From the sequence record PQ351811: 64,000 nt of DNA, one strand, 5' to 3'. The notes under the pieces are model-generated. The model was not told the DNA's origin. It worked only from the letters and a program-made list of their open reading frames with translations, and did no database searches. A program made the translations under genes and the position numbers. Of the stretch, positions 8,771 through 64,000 are shown one piece after another. Each line of letters opens with the position of its first letter. Positions within the stretch are counted from its first letter, which is position 1. This stretch comes from Shigella phage SSG23.

Positions 8771-9799
8771 ATGATTTACTACGCAGATTATGAAATAGCG
8801 GAAAAAGCCATATACGGCGAACGAAATTTTAAACGGTTGCATACTAGCTCATTTACGCTGGTCTGTAGTTGTCCGATCTGCGGTGACTCAAAGAAAAATC
8901 ATACTCAAGCGCGATTCCGTATCTATACCTATAAGGATAGTTTGCGTTGTGGTTGTTTCAACTGTAACTACAATCAGCCGTTAGGTGAATTTCTCAAACA
9001 GTATAAGCCGGACCTATTCAGGGAATGGCTTATGGAACGACGGAAGGAACAAGGCGACCACAAGAACACCACGTTCAAGCCACTGAAAAAGGTAGAAAAG
9101 CCGGAGATTAAGAAAGTGCAAACATTGCCTTTCTGCGAGAGATTAGATACTCTTCCGGCTAATCATCCTATAATAAAGTATGTCAGTGATCGTTGCATTC
9201 CCAACGATAAATGGGATCTTCTGTATTTCACGAGAGAATGGCAAAAGGTAGCAAATCACATTAAAGCGGATACCTTCAAGAATCCGCAACCTGAACCGCG
9301 TTTAGTGATTCCTATCTTTAACCGTGAGAACAAGATAGAATCCATTCAGGGGCGAGCATTGAGAAAGGATTACGGAAAGACCAAATATATGACGATTAAA
9401 ACTCATGAGTTAGCGAGTAAGGTCTACGGTCTTGAACGTGCTGATCCGAGCAAACCAGTGTACTTCTTAGAGGGTCCGATAGATTCCCTGTTCATTGATA
9501 ATGGATGTGCTATCACTGGCGGTACTTTGGGATTGGATGAAATTCCTTTCCCTGATCAGCGAGTGTTTGTACTTGACGCCGAACCACGGTCAGCCGATAC
9601 AATGCACCGACTGGAAAAGTTTATCAATGCAGGGGAAAAGATTGTATTGTGGGATCGTTGCCCGTGGCATTCTAAAGACGTTAACGCCATGATTCAGGAC
9701 GAGGGCGCTACACGCGACCAGATCATGGAATATATCAAAGAGAACACCGTACAAGGTCTGATGGCTAAAATGCGGTTTATGAAATATTGTAAATTTTAA
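8771..9799 (+). CDS. 61: DNA primase gp61 (zinc ribbon + TOPRIM)
   Basis: 342 aa; zinc ribbon CSCPICGD...CGCFNC; TOPRIM-like EGPIDSLF...VLDAE; same length as T4 gp61. Confidence 0.85.
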   Translation: MIYYADYEIAEKAIYGERNFKRLHTSSFTLVCSCPICGDSKKNHTQARFRIYTYKDSLRCGCFNCNYNQPLGEFLKQYKPDLFREWLMERRKEQGDHKNTTFKPLKKVEKPEIKKVQTLPFCERLDTLPANHPIIKYVSDRCIPNDKWDLLYFTREWQKVANHIKADTFKNPQPEPRLVIPIFNRENKIESIQGRALRKDYGKTKYMTIKTHELASKVYGLERADPSKPVYFLEGPIDSLFIDNGCAITGGTLGLDEIPFPDQRVFVLDAEPRSADTMHRLEKFINAGEKIVLWDRCPWHSKDVNAMIQDEGATRDQIMEYIKENTVQGLMAKMRFMKYCKF

Positions 9800-9813
9800 T
9801 TAATGAGGTGAAT

Positions 9814-10332
9814 ATGTCAGAATTTAATTCTTGCGCTGGTCTGGTTAGCGACGAAACTATGTCTAAAGCTGGTATTGCGTATTCCGAGGCAATCACTAGC
9901 GGCAAAGATCCGCTGCAAGTAATGTTAGATATGCAAAAAGGCTTACAGGTCGCACTAGCTGATAAATTTGAGTGGGTGCCGCATCCTGATAAGCTGGAAA
10001 CTTGCGGGGAGATCCTTGATTGGATGAAGTTGTGGGATGACGCAATCGACGACGAGACACGAGAACTTTATGTTGCCCTGGGTGGCATGTCAAATGGCAA
10101 AGATGCAAGCGCAATTACTAAAGTGTGGAAGAAGAACCACGGCGAAGCACGAGCGCGTAAATTTGCTGATCTGTCAGATGACGATAAAATCGAAATTGCG
10201 ATGGAATTGATCGATATCTGGCATTTCGTGCTGATTAAAATGCTGGGCTTAGGTTTAACCGCTAAGGATATCTTCAAGCTGTACTACCTGAAAAATGCTG
10301 AAAATTTCGCCCGTCAAGAACGCGGCTACTAA
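9814..10332 (+). CDS. 56: dCTPase/dUTPase gp56 (MazG-like)
   Basis: DPLQVMLDMQ, HPDKLET, IFKLYYLKNAENFARQERGY match T4 gp56 almost residue-for-residue at the C-terminus. Confidence 0.85.
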   Translation: MSEFNSCAGLVSDETMSKAGIAYSEAITSGKDPLQVMLDMQKGLQVALADKFEWVPHPDKLETCGEILDWMKLWDDAIDDETRELYVALGGMSNGKDASAITKVWKKNHGEARARKFADLSDDDKIEIAMELIDIWHFVLIKMLGLGLTAKDIFKLYYLKNAENFARQERGY

Positions 10333-10965: not shown

Positions 10966-11721
10966 ATGAAACTGTTTGCTTTTAAATCTAACGAAGAATT
11001 GGCGCTGGTTGTTTTCCGTTTGAACTCTATCATGGCTGGCGCTTCTCGTCGTAACAAAGACTTCTCTATGAGCTTAGTCACTGTGCGTAACATCTATCGC
11101 CAGACTCATTGCGCATATTCAGGTGAGGCGTTCGGTGAAGGTGATGATGGACTCTCCTTAGAGCGCATTGATTGCAATCTGGGCTATGTTGATGGCAATG
11201 TGATTCCGGTTAAACTGAAATACAATTCTTTCCGTGGTAATCACACTATCGAATCTCTTAAAGAGATCCAGGAACTAGGAACTAACGGTAAACTTTCTGA
11301 TGATGAGATCGCCCTACGTGCAAAGTACATCGAGTGGATCGAACTTAACGAGAATCGCATCAAGAATCAGGAAATGGCGATTGAAGAAAAGAAATTAGCG
11401 GTAGAACGCCACAAAAAGCACAATGAACCGGAGAAAGCAGAGGCAGCAGAGAAAGCAATTAAAAACACTCTCTTCCGTATGGAAGAACGTTATCAGAAAA
11501 TTGCAGATCTCAAGCAAGCCCTTAGCGAAATCAACAAGAAAGAGGAAAAACTTAAGGCTATTGCAAATAATACCGAAATCGTGCTAAAATATACCAGCGT
11601 TTTGATTGAATCTCTTTCTAAGTATGAGAACTTAACGCCAGCACAAAAAGAACGCGTGAAATACGGGCTTCCGATTGATGCGTCGTGGATTGAATTGATG
11701 AAAGCGAAGGTAGGTTTATAA
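10966..11721 (+). CDS. hypothetical protein with coiled-coil C-terminal half (Srd position)
   Basis: 251-aa ORF; charged repeat-rich C-terminus; position between ART-like gene and dda matches T4 srd; no sequence confirmation. Confidence 0.4.
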   Translation: MKLFAFKSNEELALVVFRLNSIMAGASRRNKDFSMSLVTVRNIYRQTHCAYSGEAFGEGDDGLSLERIDCNLGYVDGNVIPVKLKYNSFRGNHTIESLKEIQELGTNGKLSDDEIALRAKYIEWIELNENRIKNQEMAIEEKKLAVERHKKHNEPEKAEAAEKAIKNTLFRMEERYQKIADLKQALSEINKKEEKLKAIANNTEIVLKYTSVLIESLSKYENLTPAQKERVKYGLPIDASWIELMKAKVGL

Positions 11722-12035: not shown

Positions 12036-13426
12036 TGAGCAGAGTATTAACTTTCGATATGTTGACAGACGGACAAAAACATGCTTTCGATGTTCTGATG
12101 AAACGCATTGAACAAAAGAAACATACAACTGTCCGAGGTGCGGCGGGTACTGGTAAAACCGCAATGATGAAATTCATTGTTCAGGAAATGGTCCGCCGTG
12201 GTGTAACTGGTGTGGTTTTGGCAACGCCTACCCACCAGGCTAAAAAAGTTTTGAGTAAGGCGGTAGGTCGTCAAGCATTTACTTTACATGCTTTATTGCG
12301 TCTTAATCCGACCAATTATGAAGATACTCAAGTATTTGAACAAAAAGATACTCCTAAGCTAGATGATGTTCAGATCATCATTGTTGATGAAGCGAGTATG
12401 GTCGATAAGAAGTTATTTGATATTCTCATGAAGAGTATCAACGGGCGAATTGTTATTATTGCCGTGGGTGATCCGCACCAGTTACGACCAGTTGATCCGA
12501 GCGGTGCAACGTCAATTTCTCCTTTCTTCACGGTTGAAGAGTTTCAGAACGTGGAGTTAACAGAAATTAAAAGGTCTAATGCACCAATAATTGATGTGGC
12601 GACCGCTGTCCGTAACGGTAAATGGGTATTCGAAAAGCAGTGCGGTAACGAGGGTGTATTCCATAGCTCAACTCTACCGGAGTTTATGACTCGTTATTTT
12701 GAAGCAGTGAAAACGCCGGAAGACCTTCTAGAAAACCGTATTCTGGCTTACACTAATAAGAGTGTCGAAAAACTCAATGAAATTGTGCGTAAGCGCATTT
12801 ACAATACAGAAGATCCGGTCATTGTAGATGAAATTCTGGTTACTCAGGAACCGTTGATCGAATATCTGCGAGATGAACGCGGGAAGAAGATTCCTAATGT
12901 GATTTTTAACAACGGTGAGATGATCCGAGTTAAAGAGGTTATACCGCGCGAATTTACATTACGTTGCACGGGGGTAGATCCGCAACCAGTTTTAGGGTAT
13001 ACTCTTAAAGTCGAAAGCGTCGATAATGACGAAGACAAAGAGATCCTGAATCAGAAAGTTGGTTTAGATGCAGTCGGAATCACTACCGACAAACCGGATT
13101 TAGTAGAAATCAATATTCTGACAGAACAACGACAGAAGAACATTTTCTCTATCTACCTGAATACGGTAGCCGGACAATATCGCGAAATGAAGAAAGAGAA
13201 TCCAAACTTTAAACCAGATTGGGATTCTTTCTGGACGATGAAACGTATGTTCCTTAATGTAAAAGCATTACCAGCTTGCACTATTCATAAGTCACAAGGG
13301 ATCAGCGTAGACCGCGTGTTCCTGTATACTCCTTGCATGTGTACAGATAATGTTGACTTTGAACTGGCAATGCAGTTATTATATGTGGGTGTTACCCGTG
13401 CACGTTATCGGGTAGACTATATTTGA
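12035..13426 (+). CDS. dda: DNA helicase Dda (SF1)
   Basis: 463 aa; DMLTDGQKHAFDVLMK, Walker A GAAGTGKT, VDEASMVD, KRSNAPIIDVATAVRNGKW and C-terminal LLYVGVTR match T4 Dda. Confidence 0.9.
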   Translation: MSRVLTFDMLTDGQKHAFDVLMKRIEQKKHTTVRGAAGTGKTAMMKFIVQEMVRRGVTGVVLATPTHQAKKVLSKAVGRQAFTLHALLRLNPTNYEDTQVFEQKDTPKLDDVQIIIVDEASMVDKKLFDILMKSINGRIVIIAVGDPHQLRPVDPSGATSISPFFTVEEFQNVELTEIKRSNAPIIDVATAVRNGKWVFEKQCGNEGVFHSSTLPEFMTRYFEAVKTPEDLLENRILAYTNKSVEKLNEIVRKRIYNTEDPVIVDEILVTQEPLIEYLRDERGKKIPNVIFNNGEMIRVKEVIPREFTLRCTGVDPQPVLGYTLKVESVDNDEDKEILNQKVGLDAVGITTDKPDLVEINILTEQRQKNIFSIYLNTVAGQYREMKKENPNFKPDWDSFWTMKRMFLNVKALPACTIHKSQGISVDRVFLYTPCMCTDNVDFELAMQLLYVGVTRARYRVDYI

Positions 13427-25634: not shown

Positions 25635-25643
25635 AAATAGTTG

Positions 25644-27572: not shown

Positions 27573-27580
27573 GGTGAACT

Positions 27581-27913
27581 ATGAAAAATGTACTGATTGT
27601 ATGGGAACTGATTCCAGAAACTACCGAATTGTACATGGTACAGGTTGACGATAAAGAATTTGAAATTCTGAAACGCGTCAACTGCAAATATATTAACATT
27701 GATGACATGACCCCAGAAATGGACTATGTAAACTATGCTCTCATGCAGCCTAGCTGGATTATGGATGAAACTAAAGCAGATGCCGAATCGCTGGGTGTAC
27801 CGGAAGAAGTATTAGCGAAATGGCATCAATTCAAAGTTGAGATAAAAGAGGGTGAACCGTTTATCCCTAGCGGTATGATCGACGCGGTGATCGTAACAGG
27901 TTTTCATCTGTAA
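27581..27913 (+). CDS. hypothetical protein
   Basis: 110-aa ORF. Confidence 0.4.
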   Translation: MKNVLIVWELIPETTELYMVQVDDKEFEILKRVNCKYINIDDMTPEMDYVNYALMQPSWIMDETKADAESLGVPEEVLAKWHQFKVEIKEGEPFIPSGMIDAVIVTGFHL

Positions 27914-58140: not shown

Positions 58141-58609
58141 AATTGATATCTATGCGGGTGGACCTTATCCATCTGGCGAGTTGAGTAATTTCAATAAAAG
58201 ACCATTCCGTCTATTTGGTTGCGATATTAACAGCACAGAAGGATTTTTACAGGGGCTAAGATTTAAGAACCCTCAGAGACAAAGAGAAATCTTTTTGATG
58301 CACGGTGGCAAAGCAAAAAGAACCGGAAGGACTGAAAAGATAGAGAATCACATGCTATATTTTCAGGGTCGCCCGATTCATCGAATGAGTGAGCATTATT
58401 ACAGACTGGTACATCTGGCATTTGTTACGATGGCACGGAATAACCCAGAATTTTGTAAAGCATTACTCGCTACCGGAAATAAGAAATTGCGTCATAGCAT
58501 AGGTGGAACTGATCCGTTAAAGACCATATTGACCGAATCGGAATTTTGTAGTATCCTCAATGATATTCGTGAACGTTTAACAAAACGAGGTGAAAATGTC
58601 AATTCTTAA
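58130..58609 (+). CDS. NADAR-like (YbiA/DUF1768 family) protein
   Basis: 159 aa; ELSNF, STEGFLQGLRF (cf. YbiA DFSNF...TSEHYFQAQKF), KALLATGNKKL fit NADAR pattern as recalled. Confidence 0.5.
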   Translation: MTSEIDIYAGGPYPSGELSNFNKRPFRLFGCDINSTEGFLQGLRFKNPQRQREIFLMHGGKAKRTGRTEKIENHMLYFQGRPIHRMSEHYYRLVHLAFVTMARNNPEFCKALLATGNKKLRHSIGGTDPLKTILTESEFCSILNDIRERLTKRGENVNS

Positions 58610-60092
58610 TATCATTAATCAGCTTGCAGCGACCGACAAAACATCGCTGAAAGAAAAGATCCTGAAAGAATCTGCAAGCAATGAAACGCTGAAAGAATGC
58701 TTTTATCTGGCATATTGCAAACAGGTTACGTTTGGCGTAAAGAAATACGATAAACCGTCGCGTTATTCATCTGTGTTGTCTTTATCCGGTGCATTACAGG
58801 TCTTTAAAAATAAACTTGCCACGCGTCAAGTAACTGGTAATGCCGCATTACAGCTAGTTACCGATACTCTGACTTGCTTGTCAGAAGATGATGCTAAAGT
58901 TGCAATGATGGTCCTGAATCGTGATCTGGAATGCGGTTGTTCCGCTACCACAGCAAACAAGGTATGGAAGAAGCTGATTCCTCAGCAGCCGTGCCATCTT
59001 GCATCGTCATGTTCTGATAAGACTATTGCCAATATCAAATATCCGGCGTATGCACAACTTAAAAGCGATGGCGCTCGTGGTATGGCTGATATTGACGGGG
59101 AAACATTAGCAATCTATACCCGTTCAGGTAATACCTATCAGGGGCTGGATGATTTGTTTGCTGTTTTAGAGCGTCTACGAGGCCGTGGAGTTGTTTTAGA
59201 TGGTGAGTTGGTATATATGCCTACCCTTTCGCAAACACCAGCGCAGAACTTCGTTGATAGCGTTTATGATGGTACTCTGTCATGGATATTTGAAGAAGAG
59301 GAAATGCCATTAACGCCAGTAGCGGAAGCAGTGAAAGAATCAGTTGTTGCAGATCGTCAGACCGGAAATGGTATCCTTAACAAATCACTGAAAGGAACTA
59401 TTCCGAAAGAAGAAGCCCAATGTATTGTATACACCGTCTGGGATGTTATCGACCGTGATGTGTATTACGGAAACGAGAAAGCAACGAAGCAGTATAAAGA
59501 TCGATTTGAGGAACTAAAACAGATTGTTGAAGAACTTAACGATCCTCGTGTTCAGATAATCGAAAATACTGTAGTTAACAATATCGATGAGGCTCGCGAA
59601 GTATATCATCGCTATGTAAACATGGGATTAGAAGGTATTATCCTTAAAAATTTACATGGTGTATTTGAAGATCGTCGCAGTAAAGATCAGGTTAAATTTA
59701 AAGAAGTGATTGACTTCGACGCGGAAATTGTTGATGTATATCCGCATAGTAAAGATCCTAACAAGGTAGGCGGTTTTACTGTCCGTAGTGCGTGCGGACG
59801 AATGACGACTAACACCGGATCGGGATTGACCGACACCACAACCGAAAAAGATGATGATGGTATTGAACGTGTAATTCCGTTCGATCGTCGAAATGAACTC
59901 GACCGAGAAATGTTATGGGCTGACCGTCATAACCTGATTGGAAAAGTCATTGAGATGACATGCAACGGGTATATCCGCAGCAAATCACGTAAAGAAGATG
60001 AACCGGAGTTCTCTTTATTTCTCCCGATCATCAAACGTATTCGCTACGACAAGACCACTGCAAATACAGTAAAAGAGGTATTCGATGTGTGA
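58596..60092 (+). CDS. 30: ATP-dependent DNA ligase gp30
   Basis: NRDLECG, ANKVW, YPAYAQLKSDGARG (ligase KxDG), VLDGELVY, GIANKSLKGTI, EGIILKN, KFKEV match T4 gp30. Confidence 0.9.
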   Translation: MSILNIINQLAATDKTSLKEKILKESASNETLKECFYLAYCKQVTFGVKKYDKPSRYSSVLSLSGALQVFKNKLATRQVTGNAALQLVTDTLTCLSEDDAKVAMMVLNRDLECGCSATTANKVWKKLIPQQPCHLASSCSDKTIANIKYPAYAQLKSDGARGMADIDGETLAIYTRSGNTYQGLDDLFAVLERLRGRGVVLDGELVYMPTLSQTPAQNFVDSVYDGTLSWIFEEEEMPLTPVAEAVKESVVADRQTGNGILNKSLKGTIPKEEAQCIVYTVWDVIDRDVYYGNEKATKQYKDRFEELKQIVEELNDPRVQIIENTVVNNIDEAREVYHRYVNMGLEGIILKNLHGVFEDRRSKDQVKFKEVIDFDAEIVDVYPHSKDPNKVGGFTVRSACGRMTTNTGSGLTDTTTEKDDDGIERVIPFDRRNELDREMLWADRHNLIGKVIEMTCNGYIRSKSRKEDEPEFSLFLPIIKRIRYDKTTANTVKEVFDV

Positions 60093-60561
60093 TAATGAAG
60101 GGGCGAAAGCCCCTAAACCTAAAAAATTGTCAAAGAAAGAGCAACGCCAGATCCTGAAAATGAAATACGGTGGACGTTGTGCCTATTGTGGCGAGGAACT
60201 AGGGGATCGCTGGCACGCAGACCACATCAAACCAGTATTGCGACGCTCAAAAGTAGTCTATGATGAAAGTGGACGAATTGCCCGTAATGATGATGGATCG
60301 TGGAAGTATAAGGTTGTAGGAATGCATAAACCGGAGCACGATATACTTGATAACATGAATCCGGCTTGTGTGCAATGCAATCTTTACAAAAGCTGTATGG
60401 GCTTAGAATACTGGCGTAAGTGTATACGCGAGAACTTCCAGAAGTACATTCAACGTAACATGGGATTACGTGCGGCTAAACGCTTTGGCTTACTTTCAAT
60501 CCACGATCAGCCAGTAGAATTTTATTTCGAAAAGTACGAGCGCGAGCATCAAGAAAAATAA
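60085..60561 (+). CDS. HNH endonuclease (free-standing)
   Basis: 158 aa; CAYCGEEL...HADHIKPV...NMNPACVQCNLYK classical HNH motif. Confidence 0.7.
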   Translation: MCDNEGAKAPKPKKLSKKEQRQILKMKYGGRCAYCGEELGDRWHADHIKPVLRRSKVVYDESGRIARNDDGSWKYKVVGMHKPEHDILDNMNPACVQCNLYKSCMGLEYWRKCIRENFQKYIQRNMGLRAAKRFGLLSIHDQPVEFYFEKYEREHQEK

Positions 60562-60574
60562 TTCAAAAAAGTTG

Positions 60575-60603
60575 TTGACAGGGGATCGCCGATCCCCTAT
60601 ACT
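60575..60603 (+). promoter_or_regulatory. PeSL-type promoter TTGACA-[GGGGATCgccGATCCCC]-TATACT
   Basis: Palindromic 17-bp spacer with two GATC sites. Confidence 0.6.
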
Positions 60604-60637
60604 GCACACATACCGAAACGAACTAGGAGAATCAATT

Positions 60638-60817
60638 ATGAACTTCAACGAAATCATCGCTAAAATCCGCTACAACGAAGAAACCATTGAACTGATGCAA
60701 AACAATATCACCAATGGTTATATGATTGCAGCGTCACAAGAAATCATTGATTTGACAGTAGCAGAAAATGCTCAGTTGAAACATCAACTTTCAACGGCTG
60801 GCGTGATTGTTATGTAA
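60638..60817 (+). CDS. hypothetical protein
   Basis: 59-aa ORF from RBS-proximal ATG. Confidence 0.4.
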   Translation: MNFNEIIAKIRYNEETIELMQNNITNGYMIAASQEIIDLTVAENAQLKHQLSTAGVIVM

Positions 60818-60834: not shown

Positions 60835-61167
60835 ATGGCAAAAGTTCAGGTAGGCGAGGTCTTCAAAATGGAAGACCACACCGTGGAAGAGATGAAAGGC
60901 GCGGTATTGAAAGTAACTAATTCAATGTGGCGTAGTGTGCTTTACATCAACTTTATCGACGGTGATGTGTGGTGGGCTAGTGATAACGTTAAATGGGGCG
61001 TTAAATGGGACGAAGAAGGCAATATGGCCATCAAGTTCTACAAAGGTCATACTCACTGGTTAGGAACAGAGGATGTTGTAGAAGTTCTGGCGGTTGATGT
61101 TATGCCAGGAGAGATCGAAAGTCTTAGCGGAACCGCAAAAGAAGCATTGACACGCCATTTTGTGTGA
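60835..61167 (+). CDS. hypothetical protein, member of HxHW...LAVDV paralog family
   Basis: 110 aa; ...GHTHWLGTEDVVEVLAVDV... Confidence 0.45.
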   Translation: MAKVQVGEVFKMEDHTVEEMKGAVLKVTNSMWRSVLYINFIDGDVWWASDNVKWGVKWDEEGNMAIKFYKGHTHWLGTEDVVEVLAVDVMPGEIESLSGTAKEALTRHFV

Positions 61168-61224
61168 TGTAATATAACAATCATTGGGAGGGGTAATACT
61201 CTCCCACAAATTGAGGATAATATT

Positions 61225-61416
61225 ATGTGTGGTCTTAAAATGGTTGCTGAATATAAGCAAACTGGTAATGTCATGATGTATCGTCGCAATGCTAACGAAG
61301 ACTGGAAACCTTCCAACCGAATTAAATCCATTCAGACGTTTATGAATAACATCAAAGAAAACCTTTTCGTTAAGCGTGCTGGTGTTGGACATTGGGAAGT
61401 TTACGAAGTTGTATAA
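61225..61416 (+). CDS. hypothetical protein
   Basis: 63-aa ORF, RBS GAGGA upstream. Confidence 0.4.
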   Translation: MCGLKMVAEYKQTGNVMMYRRNANEDWKPSNRIKSIQTFMNNIKENLFVKRAGVGHWEVYEVV

Positions 61417-61432
61417 TTTTGAGGAAATTGTT

Positions 61433-61726
61433 ATGGAACATACTAATTTGTTTGTAGCCGAACCTTTCGTTGAAGGCAATAAAAATCTGGCTAATACCGT
61501 TATTCTTTATGAAGATTGGATCTTTTACATCGACGAGCATTTAGATGTATTTTGTCGCACAGATAAAAGCGACCAATTTCCAATTGAAAAAAATCGAACA
61601 TCAAATCATTGGTACGGCGGGAATGACGAAACCGACCTAGCTATTGTTCTCGAATCAGGCGTAGAATCTGAACATGCCAATGAAGTGGCAGACAAATTTA
61701 TGAAATACGCATATAAAGCATTATAA
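61433..61726 (+). CDS. hypothetical protein
   Basis: 97-aa ORF from RBS-proximal ATG. Confidence 0.4.
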   Translation: MEHTNLFVAEPFVEGNKNLANTVILYEDWIFYIDEHLDVFCRTDKSDQFPIEKNRTSNHWYGGNDETDLAIVLESGVESEHANEVADKFMKYAYKAL

Positions 61727-61731
61727 AGTTG

Positions 61732-61760
61732 TTGACAGGGGATCACAGATCCCCTATAAT
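61732..61760 (+). promoter_or_regulatory. PeSL-type promoter TTGACA-[GGGGATCacaGATCCCC]-TATAAT
   Basis: Palindromic spacer 61738-61754 with two GATC sites. Confidence 0.6.
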
Positions 61761-61794
61761 GCACACATACCAACGAGATATAGGAGAATCAAAA

Positions 61795-61962
61795 ATGTTC
61801 CAGACTAAAGAAGAATGTGAAGCATACATTGTAGCAAACCACGGTGAAGACTACCTGAAATTCGATATCGTAGTAGCACAGAAGATCACCGGAATGGTTG
61901 CAAAATATCTGGGTGTTAAAGAAGGTTACTATCCGAGCAACGCACCAGAAATTAACAAATAA
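61795..61962 (+). CDS. hypothetical protein
   Basis: 55-aa ORF from RBS-proximal ATG. Confidence 0.35.
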   Translation: MFQTKEECEAYIVANHGEDYLKFDIVVAQKITGMVAKYLGVKEGYYPSNAPEINK

Positions 61963-61965
61963 TAG

Positions 61966-61994
61966 TTGACAATGATTAACGGGAGTAGTAAGAT
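61966..61994 (+). promoter_or_regulatory. PeSL-type promoter TTGACA-17-TAAGAT within palindrome GGGAGTAgtaagaTACTCCC
   Basis: Same module as 25364 and 25868. Confidence 0.55.
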
Positions 61995-62026
61995 ACTCCC
62001 ATCAAGAAAACAAACGGAGAATCAAA

Positions 62027-62206
62027 ATGAAAGCTATCGAAGTTCAGAAGTACATGGAAATCATCGTTGAAGGTAAAGCACATTTAGTGTTGACTACTCA
62101 CGTAGGATATGATAAAAATGTACATATGCTGGTAGACAATATCGGTTGGATGAAGTTTAATCCTAACGAGAATATACAAGCTCAAGAAATGACCATCCCT
62201 TTCTAA
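62027..62206 (+). CDS. hypothetical 59-aa protein
   Basis: RBS ACGGAGA then ATG; below ORF-track cutoff. Confidence 0.35.
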   Translation: MKAIEVQKYMEIIVEGKAHLVLTTHVGYDKNVHMLVDNIGWMKFNPNENIQAQEMTIPF

Positions 62207-62218
62207 GAGGAATATATT

Positions 62219-62497
62219 ATGATGCGAATTACTGCAACACTGGATAAGACACACAAAGAAAGATTTTTCGGTATGATCTTAAAAACGCCGATTTTCGATA
62301 ATTACCTTTATGTTGACTATGAAGGCCATATTAGCTATAAATGTAAAAATGATATTCGTGATTCCTTTGGTGATAAATCACAAGCTGATATTCATGACCA
62401 CTGGTGGACCTTCGACGAACCTTTACGGATTATCGCAGTTGATGTAAAAACAATAAAAGAAGCTGATAAGGTAGTTAACGATTATGAGCAAATTTAA
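62219..62497 (+). CDS. hypothetical protein, member of HxHW...(I/L)AVDV paralog family
   Basis: 92 aa; ...IHDHWWTFDEPLRIIAVDV... Confidence 0.45.
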   Translation: MMRITATLDKTHKERFFGMILKTPIFDNYLYVDYEGHISYKCKNDIRDSFGDKSQADIHDHWWTFDEPLRIIAVDVKTIKEADKVVNDYEQI

Positions 62498-62693
62498 AGA
62501 CTACAAAGCATATCAACAGATCCTGCGAGTATATGACGCGGAGTTCGCCGAAAAGATGATGGAAGATGCATCAAAATGCCCGTCCTTTTCTGGAAACAAG
62601 AATCATTATTCGACCGGGATTGTATCGTGGAAAGAAACCGCATATACTAAACAATGGATAGATGTGTTTTCAAAAACTCTTGAATGGTGTTAA
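62484..62693 (+). CDS. hypothetical protein (MSKFKDY tandem paralog 1)
   Basis: 69 aa. Confidence 0.4.
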   Translation: MSKFKDYKAYQQILRVYDAEFAEKMMEDASKCPSFSGNKNHYSTGIVSWKETAYTKQWIDVFSKTLEWC

Positions 62694-62695
62694 TT

Positions 62696-62911
62696 ATGAG
62701 CAAATTTAAAGATTATCGAGCATATAAAGCGATCTGCGATATATTCGATGAAAAGACCGCTCATGCAATGATGGAAGATGCAGAACAATATGAATCATTC
62801 GTCAATTCCAAAGATTGCGCAGTAAACGGGATTGTGTGTTGGAAAGATACAAAGTATGAAGAAAAATGGATTACCGTGTATTACGGAGAACTAGAATATG
62901 AAATTAACTAA
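62696..62911 (+). CDS. hypothetical protein (MSKFKDY tandem paralog 2)
   Basis: 71 aa. Confidence 0.4.
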   Translation: MSKFKDYRAYKAICDIFDEKTAHAMMEDAEQYESFVNSKDCAVNGIVCWKDTKYEEKWITVYYGELEYEIN

Positions 62912-63218
62912 AAAGATTTTTCCAGAATTGCGTAACTGTCTGTTACTGGTTACTGAATATAAGCCGTATACGATCTACTTGTACGTTGATGAAAATCTGA
63001 AAATCCGTTACTATGATTATACTTCTCCAGTGATGAAATCATTTGCTCACTCGATCGCAAATAACTGTATGAATCATAATCATTGGGTATCAGAAACGGA
63101 TGACGATGCGTCAGAAGTTGTAGTGGTTGCATGGAATCTATCACCAGCGGAAGCAGATCAAGCACGCATTAAGCATTATGCGAAAAACAATTGGTTTGAC
63201 CTTATAAGTGAGGACTAA
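62898..63218 (+). CDS. hypothetical protein, divergent member of HxHW paralog family
   Basis: 106 aa; ...NHNHWVSETDDDASEVVVVAWN... Confidence 0.4.
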   Translation: MKLTKKIFPELRNCLLLVTEYKPYTIYLYVDENLKIRYYDYTSPVMKSFAHSIANNCMNHNHWVSETDDDASEVVVVAWNLSPAEADQARIKHYAKNNWFDLISED

Positions 63219-63222
63219 TATT

Positions 63223-63501
63223 ATGTTCAAAGTAGGTGATAAGTTTATTCTTAGTCGTGATATTCTCCCTAATCTGAAAGGTTGTATCATCAATCCTAGT
63301 AAAAATTCATGGTTTTATCTGTTTATCGATGATGATCTAAATGTACGCGCCGAATATAAAGAAGGTCTTCGTACTGGTCTAGGCTTCTTTCACGATCATG
63401 ACCATAGCCATTGGCTAAACGGTGGATTCGAAGCAACGGTGTTAGCGGTTGATGTGACTTACACCAACATCATAGAAAAATATCAAAAAATTATTTTATA
63501 A
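63223..63501 (+). CDS. hypothetical protein, member of HxHW...LAVDV paralog family
   Basis: 92 aa; ...HDHSHWLNGGFEATVLAVDV... Confidence 0.45.
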   Translation: MFKVGDKFILSRDILPNLKGCIINPSKNSWFYLFIDDDLNVRAEYKEGLRTGLGFFHDHDHSHWLNGGFEATVLAVDVTYTNIIEKYQKIIL

Positions 63502-63507
63502 AAAGTG

Positions 63508-63536
63508 TTGACACCGGATAGGGGATATAGCATAAT
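63508..63536 (+). promoter_or_regulatory. PeSL-type promoter TTGACA-17-CATAAT inside palindrome GGGGATAT...ATATCCCC
   Basis: Near-identical to 16991-17019. Confidence 0.55.
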
Positions 63537-63582
63537 ATCCCCATCGAAACGAGATACACTTTCTAACTAGGAGAATCAAATT

Positions 63583-63870
63583 ATGGCATACATCACTATC
63601 ACTCTGAAAGTTAACAAATTCGCTCACGCTGCACACGAAACCGACAATGCAATCCGCAACAATAAGTTTGCACGTCTGGTACGCGATGCAGTAGCTAAAG
63701 AGTTCAACTTCAAATTTGCAGATGGTAAAGTTATCACTAAATGGACTCATGACGGCGAAACTAAAGTAGAACTTGCTGACAACTTCGCAAATCAGGAATA
63801 TGCGCACCGTCGCATTAATGAAATTATCAGCGATGAACTCTACTACGGCGTACAGGAAGGACTGTTTTAA
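63583..63870 (+). CDS. hypothetical protein
   Basis: 95-aa ORF. Confidence 0.4.
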   Translation: MAYITITLKVNKFAHAAHETDNAIRNNKFARLVRDAVAKEFNFKFADGKVITKWTHDGETKVELADNFANQEYAHRRINEIISDELYYGVQEGLF

Positions 63871-63898: not shown

Positions 63899-63923
63899 CA
63901 TCCAACTATTGAGGATAATACTA

Positions 63924-64000
63924 TGAAAGATATTACTTTTGAGTTTACCCGCGAAATTCTCCCAATGCTTCGAAAGTCTCTACTTAAGCTAGAGAACAGT
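63924..64000 (+). CDS. hypothetical protein, 5' fragment (continues beyond window)
   Basis: RBS GAGGA then ATG 63924; open to window end. Confidence 0.3.

Follow-up and report, generated by a model that had tools for sequence, protein, structure and literature searches.

A 64,000-nucleotide (nt) stretch of the genome of Shigella phage SSG23 (record PQ351811; the window) ends in an array of small genes that make up a family of six paralogs. The genes are clustered in the hyperplastic region between the genes for DNA ligase (gp30) and the alt ADP-ribosyltransferase, all on the + strand, and encode proteins of 92 to 110 amino acids (aa) with a common His-x-His-Trp (HxHW) motif. Paralog A (60835-61167; 110 aa; orthologue of RB49ORF208c; phrog_16486) has the signature LYINFID ... 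GHTHW ... VLAVDV. Paralog E (61433-61726; 97 aa; RB49ORF206c; phrog_15965) reads WIFYID ... SNHW ... LAIVLESGV, whereas the canonical HNHW ... VLASDV is present in its orthologues from other phages. Paralog B (62219-62497; 92 aa; RB49ORF203c; phrog_15972) reads YLYVD ... IHDHWW ... IIAVDV, paralog C (62898-63218; 106 aa; RB49ORF200c; phrog_9345) YLYVD ... NHNHW ... VVVAWNLSPAEAD, and paralog D (63223-63501; 92 aa; RB49ORF199c; phrog_17255) FYLFID ... HDHSHW ... VLAVDV. The 5' part of the sixth paralog, F6 (63923-64000; orthologue of RB49ORF197c; VYFYITED ... HGHTHW ... VIAIDVTPEHAD), closes the window; the full gene encodes 101 aa and ends outside it, at window-equivalent position 64228.

Over the 3.5 kb around the array, the sequence matches Shigella phage SFHK24 (PQ351812.1) with 100% identity and the corresponding region of 57 other Krischvirus records with 92 to 95% identity; SFHK24 belongs to the genus Krischvirus, RB49-like T4-type myoviruses of the Straboviridae. 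A window position x corresponds to x + 76161 in PQ351812.1, where A, B, C and D are annotated as coding sequences for hypothetical proteins. These four open reading frames (ORFs) had been grouped in an initial annotation of the window, and all of them, with the exact motifs quoted there, are present and are GenBank coding sequences. Their paralogy is real; the count of four is too low, E and F6 having been missed. The deposited start of F6 (GenBank CDS0244, window position 63800) lies about 70 nt inside the preceding gene, and the ATG at 63923 has a GAGG ribosome-binding site upstream and matches the starts of the orthologues (MKD[IN][TI]FEF...). The deposited start is thus probably too far upstream, and the true start of F6 is probably the ATG at 63923. 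Every gene of the family is preceded by a strong ribosome-binding site, and B through D belong to a tightly packed, partly overlapping string of genes.

The sequences of the paralogs are only 20 to 35% identical to one another (35% for C and F6 by BLASTP). PHROGs places A, B, C and D in four different families with weak cross-matches, and direct BLASTP comparison is weak or marginal for some pairs (e.g., A-C and B-E). The significance of the similarity was therefore tested by several independent routes. When a profile hidden Markov model (HMM) of each orthologous group was searched against the 632 six-frame ORFs of the window, the highest or nearly the highest ranks went to the other members, and for the B and E models the four next-best matches were exactly the other four members. 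Alignments between subfamily profiles with hhalign were always colinear, with P values from 3e-6 (A-D) to 2e-2. The 168.8-kb genome has 2056 six-frame ORFs, and all of these were then searched with profiles from which one subfamily had been left out. The left-out paralogs were recovered with E values of 2e-7 to 2e-19 (A, 2e-7; E, 1e-7; B, 1.3e-13; C, 5.8e-14; D, 1.3e-13), F6 was recovered at 7e-16 by a profile built without it, and the best unrelated ORF had an E value of at least 0.12. The HxHW pattern occurs in 5 of the 2056 ORFs, all of them members of the family, and the full composite motif did not occur once in 200 shuffles.

Structure models gave the same result. An AlphaFold2 model of D, computed from an alignment of 21 sequences, was predicted with a local distance difference test score (pLDDT) of 89 and a predicted template modelling score (pTM) of 0.83. 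BFVD models of paralogs from other Krischvirus phages, which were made independently of this model, superimpose on it with template modelling (TM) scores of 0.64 to 0.73 at 19 to 26% identity. The initial annotation had proposed alignment, profile searches and structure prediction as checks, and would have been contradicted by similarity that was not significant; the left-out profiles, with E values between 2e-7 and 2e-19, and the models both came out in its favor. Taken together, the profile, motif and structure tests indicate that the similarity of the six genes reflects homology rather than chance, and the description of the array as one homologous family of six members is almost certainly correct. 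A search of the whole genome with the combined profile returned no seventh member. An ORF at 27578-27910 gave a marginal match to the A profile (E, 0.68) that did not recur with the combined profile, and it was rejected.

All members follow a common order of elements. From the N terminus, a strand-helix-strand unit precedes a strand with [LIF]Y[ILV]x[FIV]D at its end; a hairpin and a loop of variable length come next, and then a one-turn helix with H-x-H-W. This helix leads into the hydrophobic strand [VI][LIV]A-x-[DN]-V, after which P-x-E-A-D opens a C-terminal helix. Across 28 diverse members, His63 and Trp64 (D numbering) are invariant. His61 is nearly so, missing in E of SFHK24 and in the homologue P0055, and Asp36 is common without being universal, being absent in F6 and in the C-terminal domain of P0054. 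The model of D, in which the order of elements matches the common pattern, is a compact alpha/beta domain with four short strands and a helix ahead of the variable loop and with the [VI][LIV]A-x-[DN]-V strand buried; its N-terminal part is rich in beta structure, which bears out what had been read from the sequence alone. The proteins are mostly acidic (pI 4.1 to 6.4; the net charge reaches -16 in the E subfamily), and no signal peptide or hydrophobic segment is visible in the member sequences. P0054, a metagenomic protein of 203 aa, is a natural tandem fusion of two family domains, a D-like N-terminal half and an E/C-like C-terminal half. The fusion hints at a dimer as the possible working form of the domain. 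An AlphaFold2 model of P0054 from its single sequence, intended as a proxy for the packing of such a dimer, had a pLDDT of 34 and was uninformative.

Searches of Pfam, NCBIfam and PDB sequences returned no match common to the family, and a profile search of the PDB was empty at an E value of ≤10. The HMMs of defense systems in PADLOC-DB matched none of the six proteins at an E value of ≤1, and the best Foldseek match in the PDB had an E value of 0.81. A Pfam T4_Y03C match of protein P0050 (E, 0.1) was not colinear and was judged to be chance; weak matches to Pfam PROCT, TTL and DUF7840 were isolated, below threshold and not common to members. No link in sequence or fold to known anti-defense proteins reached significance; AcrIIA7 was among those compared. 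The host-interaction or anti-defense role suggested in the initial annotation is a reading of the genomic context. Fold similarity together with an adjacent cognate toxin gene, the combination looked for in an immunity protein of the type of Tis1 from T6SS, was not found. The domain fits no characterized family: its fold may be new, or it may be a small barrel changed beyond recognition.

The family is narrowly distributed. An exhaustive HMMER scan of 1.84 billion (1.84e9) representative proteins returned about 18 true members, all from Krischvirus or uncultured relatives; P0066 and P0067, a repeat protein and a 1,242-aa protein that also came up, were judged to be false positives. Word-indexed searches of 5.8 billion clusters found Krischvirus-like sequences only, and in a set of 50,697 records of cultured phages, Krischvirus alone has the family. 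The family genes are conserved in 53 to 58 phage records. All eight RB49-type genomes compared have exactly six members in the same order. An uncultured relative (L015), with a ligase 72% identical, has two members, both E-like, in a shuffled neighborhood.

Pairwise ratios of nonsynonymous to synonymous substitution (dN/dS; NG86) were 0.08 to 0.22 for the six genes, compared to 0.02 to 0.07 for ligase, pseT, cd and gp31. The six genes are thus under purifying selection that is moderately relaxed. Synonymous divergence (dS) is raised in E and F6, and also in an unrelated gene at 62696, which suggests allele exchange. Within orthologous groups, substitutions and indels cluster on both sides of HxHW, in the preceding loop and directly after the motif. 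In phage JSE (NC_012740; positions 8874-9262, 9591-10273, 11234-11525 and 12112-12378 of the extracted locus, L017), diverged C-like alleles occupy the slots of C and D, a frameshift splits the F6 orthologue, and the annotation divides the E orthologue into two pieces. JSE has in addition an 88-aa gene, EpJSE_00215, found in nine phage records, whose product is a structural relative of the family without HxHW and its Trp. The duplication of the family is ancient. The earlier description of these proteins as diversifying is therefore right in part: it fits the old divergence of the paralogs, the variation of the loop before HxHW and the occasional replacement of a slot, as in JSE, but it does not fit the eight RB49-type genomes, in which the six genes and their order are fixed and dN/dS is low.

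Four PeSL-type promoter/stem-loop cassettes lie in the cluster, on the same strand as the genes, with promoters at 60574, 61731, 61965 and 63507. Each consists of a perfect or near-perfect TTGACA-N17-TATAAT or TATACT promoter with a GC-rich hairpin inside or overlapping the spacer, and the folding z-scores of the cassettes range from -2.2 to -4.3. The cassette at 60568-60640 (TTGACA-GGGGATCGCCGATCCCC-TATACT) heads a unit made up of the gene at 60638 and A. It is 85% identical over 73 nt to the cassette at 61725-61797, the counterpart of PeSL206/205 of RB49, which was a very strong promoter in experiments (∼13,000 Miller units of lacZ; Arbiol et al., PMC2839356). An early promoter and stem-loop at 61965-62001 heads the unit that runs from the gene at 62027 through B, the genes at 62484 and 62696, and C to D, and another at 63507-63543 heads the gene at 63583 and F6. 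No T4-type late promoter consensus was found in the cluster. Early promoters at the head of the units and the lack of a late consensus suggest that all six genes are transcribed immediately after infection, from the sigma-70-type early promoters of PeSL cassettes. Further PeSL cassettes lie elsewhere in the window, at 25643, 52435 and 52711. When the cassettes at 60568 and 61725 are read as ORFs with TTG starts, they yield a false common peptide, MLTGD[RH]RSPI[LM]HTY.

The slot between ligase and alt differs in gene content among relatives, and in RB49 and phi1 it was described by the Krisch laboratory as a hyperplastic region (PMC2839356). The initial annotation, which had placed the genes in a hyperplastic region, was correct in this, the region being of the RB49 ligase-alt type with PeSL cassettes. 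The array resembles the PeSL-flanked ORFan cassettes of RB49 and phi1 in genus, in type of region and in having small genes behind a sigma-70-like early promoter and stem-loop; both undergo shuffling or replacement between relatives, and PeSL206/205 lies inside the array itself. The family has the traits of PeSL-associated ORFans, namely, a hyperplastic location, a promoter with stem-loop, and no homologue outside the phage group. However, the PeSL-flanked ORFs of RB49 and phi1 were treated as unrelated orphans (Arbiol, Comeau, Krisch et al. 2010, PMC2839356; 2014, PMC4122927), whereas the six ORFs described here are a single paralogous family with a common fold and motif and a fixed order in RB49-type genomes. 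The six RB49 ORFs of the family are not mentioned in either of these papers, and literature searches for the RB49 ORF names (208c, 206c, 203c, 200c, 199c and 197c) found no mention of them.

We take the T4 ORFs 30.1 to 30.9 and alt.-x, located between DNA ligase gp30 and alt, to be the positional counterpart of the array in T4; they are likewise small early genes of unknown function. We detected no homology between them and the family; T4-type sequences were absent from the results of the exhaustive profile search of 1.84 billion proteins.

On one side the array is flanked by the gp30 ligase gene (58590-60092) and an HNH endonuclease gene (60085-60561), the two sharing 8 nt at the 3' end of ligase; on the other, downstream of the window, by alt. 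The HNH gene is kept in all eight genomes compared and in the distant relative L015, where its identity (87%) is higher than that of ligase (72%), which is unusual for a gene of the homing type. Scans of the window for tRNAs and Rfam families were empty. The operon from B to D contains a second pair of paralogs, at 62484-62693 and 62696-62911 (69 and 71 aa; 47% identical; phrog_8471), whose starts are embedded in a repeated ATTATGAGCAAATTTAAAGA. The copy at 62696-62911 differs strongly among genomes, with a dS of ∼1.2 and an aa identity as low as 0.61; this points to replacement of alleles. A 55-aa gene is present twice in the hyperplastic region, at 61795-61962, where the cassette at 61725-61797 stands directly 5' of it, and outside the window at 141210-141377 of PQ351812.1 (10550-10717 of the extracted locus, L001). 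The two copies are 87% identical and look like a cassette duplication. Farther downstream in the hyperplastic region, also beyond the window, the segment at 141951-143516 of PQ351812.1 (L001 11291-12856) contains a DNA methyltransferase gene and, two genes after it, an ORF with a GmrSD_N/DUF262 domain, by a Pfam match on the homologue in L012. Together, these genes are possibly a phage-borne restriction-related module.

With regard to function, we tentatively favor, at somewhat less than even odds, the reading that the family consists of nonenzymatic binding proteins, made early, whose task is to modulate factors of the host or of competitors. Six small, soluble, mostly acidic single-domain proteins would be made immediately after infection and, having no catalytic machinery, would act stoichiometrically. 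The conserved HxHW turn would be the common anchor, and the variable loop adjoining it would decide which host or competitor factor each paralog binds, so that the outcome would be a battery of host-takeover or counter-defense modulators. Several observations point in this direction. Six diverged copies are each kept by purifying selection; a domain this small and this variable leaves no room for an obvious active site; the proteins are soluble, acidic and encoded in what appear to be immediate-early accessory transcription units; and the variability adjoins the conserved motif, with replacement of slots in relatives. What we infer here is early expression of every member, the mode of binding and the class of target. 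A bolder version, in which a fold-novel T4-type immediate-early family combines an HxHW pocket with a hypervariable specificity loop into a multitarget counter-defense battery, each paralog neutralizing a different immune protein or sequestering a different signal and slot replacement retuning host range, is unlikely.

The main rival is sequestration of a small molecule or metal. The His-x-His-Trp residues and the acidic residue of the YxxD turn would form a pocket, probably at an oligomer interface. Its ligand, a metal ion or an immune signal derived from a nucleotide, would be sequestered in the manner of the sponges Tad2 and Acb2 and would differ among paralogs. We regard this proposal as doubtful. 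The residues of such a pocket are not constant, the first His being lost in the E subfamily of SFHK24 and in P0055 and the Asp in F6 and the C-terminal domain of P0054, and the 88-aa structural relative in JSE has no Trp. Moreover, none of the 28 members matched Pfam DUF2829, the Tad2 family, at an E value of ≤10, and structural scores in this comparison were below significance.

One label in nr, "KOW2-KOW3 domains of Spt5," raised the possibility that the members are regulators with a KOW/SH3-like barrel, the type found in NusG/Spt5 and ribosomal eL14/L2, that bind nucleic acid or the transcription or translation machinery. The label can be traced to a VGD...KG pattern in A and D, and the KOW profile gives it no support: KOW (PF00467) matched none of the 28 members at an E value of ≤10. 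B, C, E and F6 lack the pattern, its spacing differs from that in KOW, and the predicted topology has helices, including one at this place, that are foreign to KOW. The acidity of most members is also unfavorable for direct binding of nucleic acid. This reading is improbable.

Two further explanations are very unlikely. The first is that the genes belong to two-gene modules, in which each family protein would serve the product of the small ORF upstream (60638 for A, 61225 for E, 62027 for B and 63583 for F6) as immunity protein, antidote or chaperone. However, these upstream ORFs are unrelated to one another, C and D have no such partner, and in L015 different ORFs precede the family genes and the homologues of 60638 and 63583 sit elsewhere. 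The second is that the proteins are small enzymes with an HxH(+D) metal center and cupin-, HIT- or amidohydrolase-like chemistry. The HxH and acidic-residue pattern and a marginal Cupin_2 match in 1 of the 28 members (E, 0.2) speak for it; against it are the lack of any Pfam, NCBIfam or PDB match across the family, the very small size of the domain, a ligand set in which neither the first His, dispensable in one subfamily, nor the Asp is invariant, and the position of the motif on a helical turn rather than on a cupin strand. Finally, chance resemblance, or carriage of nonfunctional ORFs by PeSL shuffling, might have been read from the weak BLAST matches and the split among PHROGs families, but it is refuted, as far as computation goes, by the left-out profiles and dN/dS, in line with the colinear alignments, TM scores of ∼0.7, strong ribosome-binding sites and conservation in phage records, which argue for function.

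Krischvirus phages are in wide use, among them RB49, phi1, JSE and many candidates for therapy, and about half of their genes are annotated as hypothetical. The family encoded by the array is new and has a narrow distribution; its kind, the early accessory ORFans of T4-type phages, is familiar. Its recognition reduces six ORFans of one hyperplastic region to a single unknown and corrects their classification: in PHROGs the members are scattered over at least five groups, and one of the start codons in GenBank is probably wrong. The family offers a precise motif and loop for mutation, and the compact 3.4-kb array is open to deletion and transplantation tests. Should the proteins act as inhibitors or sponges, the anti-defense repertoire would gain a new fold; otherwise, they would be the products of an ordinary family of accessory genes.

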